Below are positions 3,969 through 17,392 of a DNA stretch of 17,406 nucleotides, one piece after another; positions within the stretch are counted from its first letter, which is position 1, and each line of letters starts with the position of its first letter. The stretch is from Candidatus Aenigmatarchaeota archaeon. Lineage in GTDB: Archaea > Aenigmatarchaeota > Aenigmatarchaeia > GW2011-AR5 > JAGGXF01. The notes beneath the pieces are model-generated. The model had not been told where the DNA came from and made no database searches. It worked only from the letters and a program-made list of their open reading frames with translations. Location of the stretch: NCBI GenBank assembly GCA_029932645.1, contig JAOZPR010000004.1:26048-43453 (forward strand), read 5' to 3'. Made by a program: the position numbers and the translations under genes.

Positions 3969-5034
3969 TGTAACTAAAAAGCTGAATAGCCTAGGTGAAG
4001 ATATATTAAATGATATTGAAAAAGGAAAAAACCCAGGAATGGAAATACCGATAAGAAGCCTGTCTAATATAATTTATAATAAAAAAACGAAACAGCTTAC
4101 ATTAGGCAACAAAAAATTAAAAAGATCTTTCTTTAATGTGGCACACTCCAAAAAATTCATGCAAACACTCTTGGTTGCAGCATTCTGTAAATCTCTTGTA
4201 AAGGAAAATATACACACTAGTATAAGGGATATGTACTATAATCTGAAAAGAACATTCCCAGGTTCAAAAGAGAACACGTTCGATCAACAGTCAGAATCAG
4301 ACCCGATAATAGTCGACCTCGAGGTTATGCTTAATGTGTTACGTGAACAGCTCAGACTGACAACGGACAGAAAAGGCATTGTTGCTGGTAATGTGGTGAT
4401 AAGAGACCGCGGTGATTTAATCGACTGGTCAAAGCTTGGTTCTGGTGGCTGGTCTATACCATCGACTGTTGAGGAAGTTGAATTCAAAAAAGTTGATGCT
4501 GACTTCGTCTTGGTTATAGAAAAAAATGCTGGATTTGAGCGGTTGCATGAAGATAAATTTTGGAAAAAACATAACTGTATCTTAATCGGAACAGGTGGCC
4601 AAGCTGCCCGTGGAGCAAGGTTATTAATACAGAGATTATCAAGCGAGTTCGGCTTGCCTGTATATGTTTTTACAGATGGCGACCCATATGGGTGGTATAT
4701 ATATTCTGTTATAAAATCTGGTTCAATGAGTCTGGCACATGTATCTGACAGGATAAGTACACCAAACGCGAAGTTTATTGGACTAACCATAACAGACATA
4801 TTTAAGTTTAACCTGAAAAAGTGCACAATTAAGGCTAGGGAAGTCGATATAAAAAGAGCCGGAGAGCTTTTAAAGTACGAATGGTTTCAGAAGCCAGAGT
4901 GGCAGAAAGAGATAAACCTTATGATAGAAAAGGGAGTAAAGGCAGAAATAGAAGCCCTGTCCCACCGGGGCCTGAAGTTTATGTCTCAAACCTATTTGCC
5001 TGAAAAAATTAAAAACAAGGAATTCTTGCCATAG
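3961..5034 (+). CDS. top6A: DNA topoisomerase VI subunit A (Spo11-like)
   Basis: IRDMYY with the catalytic Tyr, TOPRIM motifs VIEKNA and TDGDPYG, and KAEIEAL. ATG 3961 follows GGTGAT and overlaps the top6B stop; 3949 and 3955 are alternative starts. Confidence 0.97.
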   Translation: MNDVTKKLNSLGEDILNDIEKGKNPGMEIPIRSLSNIIYNKKTKQLTLGNKKLKRSFFNVAHSKKFMQTLLVAAFCKSLVKENIHTSIRDMYYNLKRTFPGSKENTFDQQSESDPIIVDLEVMLNVLREQLRLTTDRKGIVAGNVVIRDRGDLIDWSKLGSGGWSIPSTVEEVEFKKVDADFVLVIEKNAGFERLHEDKFWKKHNCILIGTGGQAARGARLLIQRLSSEFGLPVYVFTDGDPYGWYIYSVIKSGSMSLAHVSDRISTPNAKFIGLTITDIFKFNLKKCTIKAREVDIKRAGELLKYEWFQKPEWQKEINLMIEKGVKAEIEALSHRGLKFMSQTYLPEKIKNKEFLP

Positions 5035-5129
5035 CCTCAAGAGAACTAACACAGGTAGAAGAGAACGTATTCAATTGTTTTGTCGGGTTGCGTTGATTAA
5101 CTTCTAGAGATAACTCAAATGCCTCTTCT

Positions 5130-5158
5130 AAAACTTTTTAAAACATTGCGCTTATATA
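5130..5158 (+). promoter_or_regulatory. Putative BRE/TATA promoter(s) of the tRNA-Asn/tRNA-Phe pair
   Basis: AAAACTTTTTAAAA (about 5130-5143) and TTATATA (5152-5158) lie upstream of the tRNA start at 5182. Confidence 0.5.
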
Positions 5159-5181
5159 CAACAAAGTAGAGACGAAGACGT

Positions 5182-5337
5182 GCCTTCGTAGCTTAGTGGT
5201 ACTTTGCTCCGAGAGCAGAAGCACCAAAGAGCGTTCGGCTGTTAATCTCTCGTTAGAAAAAACGGCAACCGAAAGGTCGCAGGTTCAAAAGCTAATGGCG
5301 GGTTGCGGCCCGTATGCTGATATTCCTGCCGAAGGCG
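5182..5337 (+). tRNA. trnN: tRNA-Asn(GTT) with three introns: D-loop (about 5202-5226/5228), 37/38 (5245-5267) and T-loop 59/60 (5290-5323)
   Basis: The spliced product folds by hand: acceptor GCCTTCG/CGAAGGC, D-stem GCTT/GAGC, anticodon stem TTCGG/CCGAA with loop CT-GTT-AA (anticodon 5241-5243), variable loop AGGTC, T-stem GCAGG/CCTGC, T-loop TTCAAAT, discriminator G5337. CCA is not encoded. Confidence 0.92.
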
Positions 5338-5339
5338 TT

Positions 5340-5510
5340 GGGACGATAGCTCAGCCTGGTGAGCCTTTTCCTAAATGAATTGGTGTGCAAAGCACATCGA
5401 TTTGGGAAAGAAAAGCTTCAATGAAAAAGAAGGGATCGGGTAAGAGAGCGCACGGCTGAAGTTTTTGGACAGATACCGTGTTGTCGTGGGTTCAAATCCC
5501 ACTCGTCCCA
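5340..5510 (+). tRNA. trnF: tRNA-Phe(GAA) with two introns: D-loop 19/20 (5360-5443, 84 nt) and 37/38 (5462-5474, 13 nt)
   Basis: Acceptor GGGACGA/TCGTCCC, spliced D-arm GCTC-AGCCTGG|GA-GAGC, anticodon stem CACGG/CCGTG with loop CT-GAA-GA (anticodon 5458-5460, G37), T-arm GTGGG-TTCAAAT-CCCAC, discriminator A5510. CCA is not encoded. Confidence 0.93.
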
Positions 5511-5530
5511 TGTTTTTCTATGCGCTTTTC
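5511..5530 (+). terminator. Oligo-T archaeal terminator after tRNA-Phe
   Basis: TGTTTTTCT...CTTTTC immediately follows the discriminator. Confidence 0.45.
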
Positions 5531-5625
5531 AGTGAACAATTACATTTACATTACACAGATTTTTGCTGTAAATATATGACAAAAAATCTAATAGATATAA
5601 AAAGTTTTCTGCTTAATATGTATCC

Positions 5626-6291
5626 ATGAAATATAGATATCGAGCAAAGAGAAGTAAATTTAAAGAAGTAGCAAAGGTGCAAAAATCTGGTTCTGGAGAG
5701 GATTTGGACCTAATTTTAGAGAAACTTCGAAGAATTGCAAATAACAAAACAGTTATTGCAACTGTTTTTATTGTAGTTGGTATATTTGCATTATATTCCA
5801 TAACAACAGCTGTGACTGGCTATTATGCTTATCAAGAGGACCTAGAAAACGAGCTGAACCAAACAAAACAAGACTTGGCAAATGCTAAGGCGTTACAAGA
5901 ACAGTGTAAGAAAGATTTAACAACTTGCTCTAGTGAGAAAGTAACCTACCTGACTGAATTGTCAGATACAAAAGGCTTCCTTGAAGCGTGCGAAGAAGAC
6001 AGAGATGATTATAAAAGAGAATGGAATGACTGTAAGGATGAGATTGATGCCATGAATGATGACTTGAACGAGTGTGAGGAAGACCGGGACGAATACAAGG
6101 ACAAATGGGATGATTGCAGGGATGATAAAGAGGCGCTCCAGAACGAGTATAACTCACTCAGAAACAACTACATAGAAGACAAGTGTTGTGCCGGATTCCC
6201 TGGACAGACAATATACTGGAAACTAAGTGGTCAAGAGATTCTGTGTGCGACAAACCAGACATCTGGTTACTCATCATACAACTGTCCATAG
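5626..6291 (+). CDS. Hypothetical single-pass membrane coiled-coil protein with periodic Cys and a C-terminal Cys cluster
   Basis: Basic N-terminus, one hydrophobic segment (VIATVFIVVGIFALYSI), an acidic heptad region with a 28-aa tandem repeat, and a C-terminal CC...C...C. Confidence 0.75.
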   Translation: MKYRYRAKRSKFKEVAKVQKSGSGEDLDLILEKLRRIANNKTVIATVFIVVGIFALYSITTAVTGYYAYQEDLENELNQTKQDLANAKALQEQCKKDLTTCSSEKVTYLTELSDTKGFLEACEEDRDDYKREWNDCKDEIDAMNDDLNECEEDRDEYKDKWDDCRDDKEALQNEYNSLRNNYIEDKCCAGFPGQTIYWKLSGQEILCATNQTSGYSSYNCP

Positions 6292-6360: not shown

Positions 6361-6400
6361 CTTAGTACTATGATAATTAATTTAGCACTATGATAATTAA
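6361..6400 (+). repeat. 20-bp tandem direct repeat (2 copies) in the endA leader
   Basis: CTTAGTACTATGATAATTAA and TTTAGCACTATGATAATTAA are 18/20 identical. Confidence 0.85.
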
Positions 6401-6411
6401 TGGTGATATTA

Positions 6412-7023
6412 ATGAAACGAAAAAAGTCCAAAAAAGAAACAAAAGCTGAGGAGAAAGAAACAGAAGAAAAAGATATAGAGAAAGGGACCAAAAAAGACAT
6501 AAAAGCTGTTCTTGAAGAAAATAAAATAATAGTTTGGGATGATTATGAAAATGTTTATGAGCCGGGCTACTATGGAAAAATCATGGACGGTTATCTGGAA
6601 CTGGCTTTTGTGGAAGCGTTGCTGCTTTTGAAGAGAGGGCGAATAAAAGTTTTTGAGGGCAAGAAAGAGTTGGATTTCAAGAAGCTGTTTGAAAAGGCCT
6701 GCGCACTGGACAGAAGACTACCTGAAAGATATCGGGTCTATGAAGAGCTTCGTGAGCGCGGACTTTTGGTAAGAACAGGATTTAAATTTGGCTGTGATTT
6801 CAGGGTCTATGACCGGGGTGTGCAACTCAGGAAAGGGCCAAAAAGTCAGAAGGAACACACGAAATGGATTGTATTCGCTGTACCAGAAGATTATACATGC
6901 TCTTTTCAGGAGTTATCAAGAGCTGTGAGGCTTGCTCATAACATAAGGGCTAAAATGCTTTGGGCTATCGTAGACAATGAAAACGATATCACATACTACC
7001 AGGTCACGAGGCATAAGCCTTGA
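6412..7023 (+). CDS. endA: tRNA-splicing endonuclease, single-unit alpha type, with an atypical active site
   Basis: LELAFVEALLL, RYRVYEELRERG..VRTGFKFGCDFRVY, KEH, RLAHNIR, acidic loop VDNENDITYY and terminal KP. ATG 6412 follows GGTGAT; 6400 is an alternative start. Confidence 0.95.
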   Translation: MKRKKSKKETKAEEKETEEKDIEKGTKKDIKAVLEENKIIVWDDYENVYEPGYYGKIMDGYLELAFVEALLLLKRGRIKVFEGKKELDFKKLFEKACALDRRLPERYRVYEELRERGLLVRTGFKFGCDFRVYDRGVQLRKGPKSQKEHTKWIVFAVPEDYTCSFQELSRAVRLAHNIRAKMLWAIVDNENDITYYQVTRHKP

Positions 7024-17274: not shown

Positions 17275-17392
17275 TGCCCCCGACGGGATTCGAACCCGCG
17301 ACCCTCTGCTTTCTCCGTTTCTTCCGTCGACGCTTCTTTTTAAGAAGGGTCGATAGAAGGCAGATGCTCTGTCCAAGCTGAGCTACGGAGGC
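17275..17392 (-). tRNA. trnR: tRNA-Arg(TCT) with a 43-nt intron at 37/38 (17353-17311)
   Basis: Reverse complement: acceptor GCCTCCG/CGGGGGC, D-arm GCTC-AGCTTGGACA-GAGC (with the Arg identity element A20), anticodon stem TCTGC/GCAGA, anticodon TCT at 17357-17355, T-arm GCGGG-TTCGAAT-CCCGT, discriminator A. The intron pairs C32-U33-U34-C35 with GGAG before an AA|A bulge. Confidence 0.95.

Follow-up and report, generated by a model that had tools for sequence, protein, structure and literature searches.

The number of introns per interrupted tRNA gene has been given as "one to a maximum of three" (PMC3239211), and examples with three introns have been given from Pyrobaculum (PMC4390854). As far as the cited portions of this literature extend, three-intron tRNAs are mainly a property of the Thermoproteales, and three is the maximum. 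A second point of reference is ARMAN-2 (Ca. Micrarchaeum), for which the portions cited describe a pre-tRNA-Cys(GCA) that carries an intron at 59/60 and a pre-tRNA-Pro(GGG) with two T-loop introns (Fujishima 2011, PMC3239211). The ARMAN-2 introns are cut by an epsilon2 EndA, and 56% of the tRNA genes are reported there as disrupted (PMC3239211). Literature searches listed no paper dealing with tRNA introns in Aenigmarchaeota or Aenigmatarchaeota.

The gene examined here occupies positions 5182 to 5337 (156 nt) of the window, which is the whole 17,406-nt stretch of DNA that was analyzed. The host belongs to the Aenigmatarchaeota (DPANN), as indicated by the names attached to EndA homologs, and is a tiny symbiont-type archaeon, and its genome is a MAG of 43 contigs that is 89% complete. 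We consider, with a probability of about 90%, that the locus is a tRNA-Asn(GUU) gene whose three introns the archaeal protein-only splicing pathway is predicted to excise. On the evidence of its sequence, this three-intron gene is almost certainly functional; the mature sequence given here is a predicted one.

The gene consists of four exons, with one intron in each of three loops, all on the + strand. Exon 1 (5182 to 5200) comprises positions 1 to 20 of the tRNA, namely, the 5' strand of the acceptor stem, U8 and A9, the 5' strand of the D stem, and the D loop as far as U20. Intron 1 (5201 to 5227, 27 nt) interrupts the D loop at 20/21, and an alternative placement at 5202 to 5228 gives the same product. 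Exon 2 (5228 to 5244) spans positions 21 to 37, with A21, the 3' strand of the D stem, G26, and the 5' strand of the anticodon stem, and ends in C32 U33 G34 U35 U36 A37. It is followed by intron 2 (5245 to 5267, 23 nt) at the canonical position, 37/38. Exon 3 (5268 to 5289) carries positions 38 to 59, which include the 3' strand of the anticodon stem, the variable loop, the 5' strand of the T stem, and U54 to A59. Intron 3 (5290 to 5323, 34 nt) lies in the T loop at 59/60, and exon 4 (5324 to 5337) supplies positions 60 to 73, that is, U60, the 3' strands of the T and acceptor stems, and the discriminator G.

Subtraction of the 27-, 23-, and 34-nt introns left a 72-mer, spliced by coordinate, that ARAGORN identified as tRNA-Asn(gtt). 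All positions in its stems of 7, 4, 5, and 5 bp were paired, and the sole non-Watson-Crick pair was a U-G wobble in the D stem. The 7-bp acceptor stem was followed by a discriminator G, which would serve as an Asn identity element, and the CCA was not encoded. The anticodon GUU, U33, and a purine at position 37 (A37), as in a canonical cloverleaf, were present in the spliced form, as were U8, A14, G18 G19, A21, G53, U54 U55 C56, A58, and C61, the conserved tertiary nucleotides of tRNA. Orthology was indicated by matches at 61 of 72 positions with the tRNA-Asn gene of genome G015 and at 58 of 72 with that of G009, both of which are intronless and lie upstream of tRNA-Phe.

The unspliced gene was not recognized by standard finders. 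ARAGORN reported no tRNA genes in the window and, when run in intron mode on the whole genome, none at 5182 to 5337. The Rfam tRNA model left this interval unmatched at the gathering threshold, at an E value of ≤10, and in a whole-genome search that produced 24 matches. A preliminary description, made from the sequence, had predicted that standard annotation would be likely to miss the gene or to call it a pseudogene, and both programs missed it. The gene limits that it proposed were borne out by the 7-bp acceptor stem and discriminator G, and its identification of a tRNA-Asn(GTT) that forms a cloverleaf only without three inserts agreed with the ARAGORN call for the spliced 72-mer. Elsewhere in the window, the sole Rfam tRNA match, at gathering score (54.7 bits), was a tRNA-Arg(UCU) gene on the minus strand (17275 to 17392) with a 43-nt intron at 37/38, which ARAGORN misread as Ser(aga).

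The splice sites were then compared with the bulge-helix-bulge (BHB) geometry. At each intron, a stem of the tRNA itself (D, anticodon, or T) forms the outer helix and is directly followed by a 4-nt central helix, in which four exon bases face four intron bases; both cuts fall 2 bases 3' of the central helix, inside 3-nt bulges. The central helix of intron 1 is AGUG/CACC (three pairs and an A.C mismatch), its bulges are GU^A and AA^A (^ marks the cut), and its inner hairpin has eight pairs and one bulged A. Intron 2 pairs as CUGU/ACGG in its central helix, is cut in the bulges UA^A and CA^A, and has a weak inner hairpin, and intron 3 has the central helix UUCA/UGAU (a U.U mismatch and three pairs), bulges AA^A and AU^U, and an inner hairpin; for these two introns the size, position, helix, and bulges given in the preliminary description (CUGU/ACGG with CA^A in the one, AA^A and AT^T with a U-U mismatch in the other) were all found as claimed, as was the inner hairpin of intron 3. 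The h/H/h' scores were 4/4, 3/4, and 3/3 for intron 1; 4/4, 4/4, and 2/3 for intron 2; and 4/4, 3/4, and 2/3 for intron 3. Under a strict hBHBh' definition, with a 4-bp central helix, full pairing was present in intron 2 only, introns 1 and 3 pairing at 3/4.

In a control in which the intron letters were shuffled, the exons were kept fixed, and the geometry was scored at the cut sites implied by the cloverleaf, BHB geometry arose singly in 160, 269, and 391 of 5,000 shuffles for introns 1, 2, and 3, respectively, and at all three sites in 1 of 5,000. A permissive scan of the pre-tRNA was not discriminating, with 86 motifs versus a shuffle mean of 66.9 and a maximum of 126 (300 shuffles), and a BHB motif on its own is weak evidence. 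The MFE of the pre-tRNA was -59.9 kcal/mol (z = -3.67), and none of 200 shuffles folded as well. A cloverleaf with three BHBs evaluated at -43.2 kcal/mol, versus this minimum, and the MFE fold had another register (UGGU/ACCA) for intron 1 and was without the central helix of intron 3 and without the anticodon stem. Because the permissive scan was uninformative, the MFE fold adopted the other register, and the central helix of intron 3 paired at only 2/4 in the same-genus ortholog (genome G001), the tRNA-Asn motifs are better described as relaxed than as strict, as far as sequence and folding allow. A single nested fold accommodates the three motifs, and the introns therefore need not be removed in any particular order.

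Comparison with relatives placed the inserts in an evolutionary context. In the G001 ortholog, the exons were identical at 72/72 positions and the introns at 43/84 aligned columns, and introns of 17, 18, and 32 nt were present at the same three sites. The 17-nt intron 1 matched that of the gene studied here in its central helix and bulges, and the 18-nt intron 2 had an H of CUGU/ACAG and an h' of 3/3. In the sister genus (G002), the D-loop and 37/38 introns were present and the T-loop intron was absent by exactly 34 columns. A structural finder was applied to 32 loci, which came from 31 genomes of the order. It recovered tRNA-Asn at 20 of them, and another gene was read by eye, with an intron at about 30/31, at one (L016, from G023) of the 12 loci in which the finder detected no tRNA-Asn; at the remaining loci the gene may be elsewhere or in a form that the finder cannot parse. 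The spliced forms of all 20 recovered genes (our gene and 19 relatives) were called tRNA-Asn by ARAGORN. The relatives' genes were mostly next to tRNA-Phe and EndA, and their three insertion regions were those of the gene studied here.

Counts of tRNA-Asn introns in the 21 genes, our own included, were zero in six, one in eight, two in four, and three in three. The three-intron genes were those of our genome, of G001, and of G040, which belongs to another family of the order and whose D-loop intron, placed by eye, lies near 15/16 rather than at 20/21. A D-loop insert was absent from 12 of the 20 genes recovered by the finder, and the G023 gene, read by eye, was a thirteenth without one. A T-loop insert was at the same place in 8/8 relatives that have one (cut sites by eye). 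One gene (L028 of G033, positions 653 to 809) has a 92-nt D region that may hold two inserts, as no single cut leaves a D loop with G18 G19; it was counted as one intron. Within the order, tRNA-Asn introns are graded from zero to three and an intron-free state exists for each site. This series of 21 orthologs, with exact presence or absence in sister genera, is suited to questions of gain and loss of noncanonical introns.

Retention of all three intron sites within the genus would also be expected if the introns were spliced and had a job of their own, such as holding D-loop and T-loop bases in helices until late maturation, guiding modification, or protecting the gene against homing endonucleases or elements that integrate. 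In introns 1 and 3, the central helices do sequester A14 to G17 and U54 to A57, including part of the contact region between the D and T loops. On the other hand, these are short sequences of 27, 23, and 34 nt that diverge rapidly (43/84), vary in length, and lack paralogs in the genome, and relatives manage without any or all of them. An additional role of this kind is unlikely, although less so than the other alternatives to a gene whose introns are simply removed.

The placement of the D-loop cut required separate consideration, since ARAGORN accepted 21 of 21 trial cuts and was blind to the cut position; placement at 20/21 therefore rests on BHB geometry and on the D loops of relatives. 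The preliminary description had given the D-loop insert as a hairpin of 17 nt. The hairpin is present, but it makes up only the interior of an intron of 27 nt, and a 17-nt size was rejected: subtraction of 17, 23, and 34 nt from 156 nt leaves 82 nt versus the 72 needed, with no D stem next to position 26. The same result bears on the possibility that the gene has only two introns, with the D-loop insert bounded in some other way (for example, as the 17-nt hairpin) or retained as an enlarged D loop. That possibility draws on the indifference of ARAGORN to the cut and on the MFE fold, which favors a register without 3-nt bulges. It is countered, in addition, by the intronless D loops of G022 and G032, which are identical to the product of the 27-nt cut, by the absence of the insert from 12/20 genes, and by the 17-nt insert of G001, which shares its location, central helix, and bulges with intron 1. 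A two-intron gene was judged very unlikely, and the three-intron structure was retained.

In an ad hoc structural scan of the host genome, which left about ten isoacceptors unparsed, 33 tRNA genes were recognized and 33/33 were interrupted, with 52 introns in total: one intron in 17 genes, two in 13, and three in 3. ARAGORN agreed with the anticodon in 33/33 spliced constructs. The genes with three introns were Asn(GUU), Val(CAC) (C27:15216-15377), and Gly(UCC) (C33:333-594), and a fourth such gene, tRNA-Ile(UAU), was located near C27:16419-16581 on the minus strand. The Ile(UAU), Val(CAC), and Gly(UCC) genes have a D-loop, 37/38, and T-loop arrangement like that of tRNA-Asn and differ from it in isoacceptor. 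No intron-free tRNA was detected in the genome by any finder; the lone "intronless" call by ARAGORN, for Gly(GCC) on C10, is better read as a gene of 124 nt whose D loop holds an intron. As all of the recognized genes have introns, interruption is the rule for tRNA genes in this genome. The earlier statement that triple-intron tRNAs are rare holds for the literature cited but not for this lineage, in which they are commonplace, with at least four such genes in this genome plus the tRNA-Asn gene of G040.

The T-loop introns (84 to 91 nt) of tRNA-Gly(CCC), Gly(UCC), Arg(CCU), and Asp(GUC), at C14:19423-19580, C33:333-594, C37:32424-32669, and C42:1866-2029, share a long common core and, by this sequence likeness, are a copied intron family. 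The family to which the Gly(UCC) T-loop intron belongs extends to three other tRNAs, whereas the tRNA-Asn introns, tested in this way for recent copying, had no paralogs in the genome, the best non-self match being one of 14 nt (E = 0.034). A tRNA-Pro-like gene at C5:10633-10725 reads AGG in its spliced form, which is unusual for archaea and is possibly a mis-parse of the intron position.

The genome appears to need this gene. An AsnRS is encoded (TIGR00457, 481.7 bits versus a cutoff of 342.6), and Asn accounts for 218 of 5,111 codons (4.3%) in 15 open reading frames of the window. A check proposed in the preliminary description, whether this is the only tRNA-Asn of the genome, was carried out on the 89%-complete assembly by a search for GUU anticodon arms, by short-word BLAST with the mature tRNA-Asn, and by the tRNA census, and no second tRNA-Asn was found by any of them. 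The anticodon-arm search gave 5,022 raw stem-loops genome-wide, of which 49 had a T-arm motif; on inspection by eye, only the tRNA-Asn gene itself and a tRNA-Val(GAC) were tRNA-like. The latter, at C14:19642-19822, shares its T arm with tRNA-Asn and was rejected as a second copy. Two further candidates were discarded: a "tRNA-Asn(att)" called by ARAGORN on C10, which is actually tRNA-Ser(CGA) with a D-region intron, and the end of C4, which duplicates the end of the C14 contig. At 89% completeness, the assembly may have missed another tRNA-Asn or another subunit of EndA.

Population DNA was examined through contigs covering all or part of the gene from six runs in five studies, one of which includes the likely source sample. 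No exon differences were present. Inside the gene there were just two variants, 5216 C>T and 5223 A>G; they lie in intron 1 and keep its pairing as G-U and U-G. No contig in these six runs skipped any of the tRNA-Asn introns. Single contigs covered 5100 to 5500 (X2, record 1), 5100 to 5600 (X3, record 9), 5100 to 5477 (X4, record 13), and 5211 to 5600 (X7), with 0 to 2 differences each, and those of X5 and X9 agreed. Runs in which this organism occurs came from hydrothermal vents and marine sediments. No RNA run was listed for 5000 to 5700 of the window, and the single RNA run from a sample with this DNA (X16, 2.5 million letters) gave no match, a result uninformative as to expression.

These results were set against the proposal that the locus is a decayed tRNA-Asn pseudogene from which the inserts are never spliced out, an alternative that the preliminary description had itself raised. 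A pseudogene could account for the failure of ARAGORN and Rfam to recognize the locus and for a mismatch in two of the central helices. It is at odds with the strong constraint on the exons, which are fully conserved in the same-genus ortholog when only about half of the intron columns are, with the confinement of population variants to an intron, with the interruption of every recognized tRNA gene, and with the lack of any other detected tRNA-Asn, intact or otherwise, in a genome that has an AsnRS and uses Asn codons. Decay was considered slightly less probable even than a two-intron gene. An assembly chimera or mis-join of the metagenome bin, for which the 43-contig nature of the MAG might speak, is scarcely credible given that contigs from independent runs (X2, X3, X4, and X7) span most or all of the gene.

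The surroundings of the tRNA-Asn gene suggested a shared transcript. A TATA-like box, TTATATA (5152 to 5158, +), precedes the gene's first base by 23 nt, and the box and its flanks are kept in G001; it is likely to be the promoter of an Asn-Phe transcript. A tRNA-Phe(GAA) gene (5340 to 5510, +), whose spliced form was called tRNA-Phe(gaa) by ARAGORN, begins 2 nt downstream and contains an 84-nt D-loop intron (5360 to 5443) and a 13-nt intron at 37/38 (5462 to 5474). It is followed by an oligo-T run (5513 to 5517, +), a likely terminator. The 2-nt gap between the discriminator and tRNA-Phe, together with the oligo-T run, makes it likely that the two genes are cotranscribed, with a predicted joint precursor containing five introns. 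The adjacency of the two genes is kept in relatives. The tRNA-Phe gene of G001 has a short D-loop intron only, and two further runs yielded contigs in which 20 and 25 other letters stood in place of the inner portion of the long tRNA-Phe intron. A 22-nt stretch over an exon-intron junction of tRNA-Phe recurs in tRNA-Lys(CUU) (C11:1025-1046), which hints at a shared intron. Among the 23 relatives with an EndA match (within G001 to G025), 19 had EndA within about 2 kb of the tRNA-Phe match on the same contig, and tRNA-Asn/Phe with EndA is a conserved neighborhood.

The tRNA-splicing endonuclease, EndA, is encoded 1 kb downstream of tRNA-Asn (6400 to 7023, +) as a 207-amino-acid protein with PF02778 and PF01974 domains and a TIGR00324 score of 100.4 bits versus a cutoff of 59.6. 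Its best solved relative was 1a79, the M. jannaschii homotetramer (E = 4.9e-33; Foldseek E = 5.5e-15). It was the only PF01974 match in the genome, and the best tblastn candidate for a second subunit (on C20, E = 0.027) was a radical-SAM protein and was rejected. Exactly one PF01974 match was present in 18 of 26 genomes, our own included; five genomes of family f7 also encode a protein of 398 to 485 amino acids with two PF01974 stretches. The gene has the alpha4-type architecture of one N-terminal and one catalytic domain, about 170 to 210 amino acids, and no beta-subunit gene in this 89%-complete genome, and from its size and its best match to 1a79 the enzyme looks like a homotetramer.

The active site was unusual. 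Tyr137 and His153 aligned with the catalytic Tyr and His, and the column of the catalytic lysine, which is the K of a V/T-R-K motif in 1a79, 3iey_A, 5x89, 4fz2, and 1r0v, was occupied by Ala184, so that the Tyr-His-Lys triad is incomplete. In the cited part of the ARMAN-2 study, K282 occupies this column (PMC3488258). Among 120 close homologs, the column was Ala in 119 and Thr in one, and the residue after it was mostly R (98), otherwise K (19), N (2), or H (1). A simple pattern found the motif in 69 of 150 diverse representatives, of which 61 had K at this column, 6 had A, and one each had T and E; those with Ala were the short enzymes closest to our EndA, some with T or L next. In an AF2 model (pLDDT 64), residues 182 to 184 lie in a loop that connects a helix and a strand. 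With Ala at the catalytic lysine column, the chemistry of this EndA is not that of the textbook. Relative to 1a79, the protein has six extra residues between Tyr137 and His153, and these correspond in the alignment to a lysine-rich loop in the alpha subunit from Nanoarchaeum, given in the cited source as residues 90 to 98 (PMC3488258). In the portion cited of a survey that terms this loop L3, alpha4-type DPANN EndAs with L3 go with more disrupted tRNA genes (Kaneta 2018, PMC5829648).

A pathway for the production of tRNA-Asn can be proposed. Transcription would start from the TATA-like box, with tRNA-Phe in the same precursor; the single EndA would make six cuts in the pre-tRNA-Asn, after which the four exons would be ligated by RtcB, which is encoded in the genome. 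Trimming of the ends and addition of CCA would follow, and the tRNA would be charged by AsnRS. As two of the central helices are mismatched, EndA would need a relaxed choice of substrate. The lone, short, lysine-less EndA with its Nanoarchaeum-type loop and its nearby substrates is a matched set for testing whether the loop confers relaxed specificity. We suggest tentatively, at somewhat less than an even chance, that in this genus every tRNA gene is interrupted and all splicing falls on one lysine-less EndA with a lysine-rich loop; if so, in no case yet seen would translation depend so completely on the splicing of tRNAs, and the active site would be a variant one. For annotation, ordinary pipelines would report tRNA-Asn as missing here and in relatives, which distorts completeness estimates and decoding inferences for DPANN genomes. 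Incomplete tRNA sets in DPANN have been noted, and manual searches called for, in the portion cited of Kaneta 2018 (PMC5829648).

As far as the crenarchaeal three-intron tRNA genes are described in the sources cited, the tRNA-Asn gene resembles them in having three introns, noncanonical sites beside 37/38, and splice sites of BHB type and in being hidden from plain tRNA finders. Unlike them, it comes from a DPANN aenigmatarchaeote and has one intron per loop, and the enzyme predicted to cut it is one short EndA of alpha type whose loop is like that of Nanoarchaeum, in contrast to the crenarchaeal (alpha-beta)2 enzyme with a crenarchaeal loop. With ARMAN-2, in the account cited, it shares a DPANN host, a 59/60 intron, relaxed BHB motifs, and many disrupted tRNA genes. 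The ARMAN-2 EndA is a three-unit epsilon2 enzyme with an ASL loop, however, whereas the EndA encoded here has one unit of 207 amino acids, and the disrupted fraction is 56% in ARMAN-2 versus 33/33 recognized genes in this genome; a three-intron gene is not mentioned in the cited portion of the ARMAN-2 account. Overall, these comparisons indicated that the type of gene is already known and that the tRNA-Asn gene adds another example of it rather than a new type.
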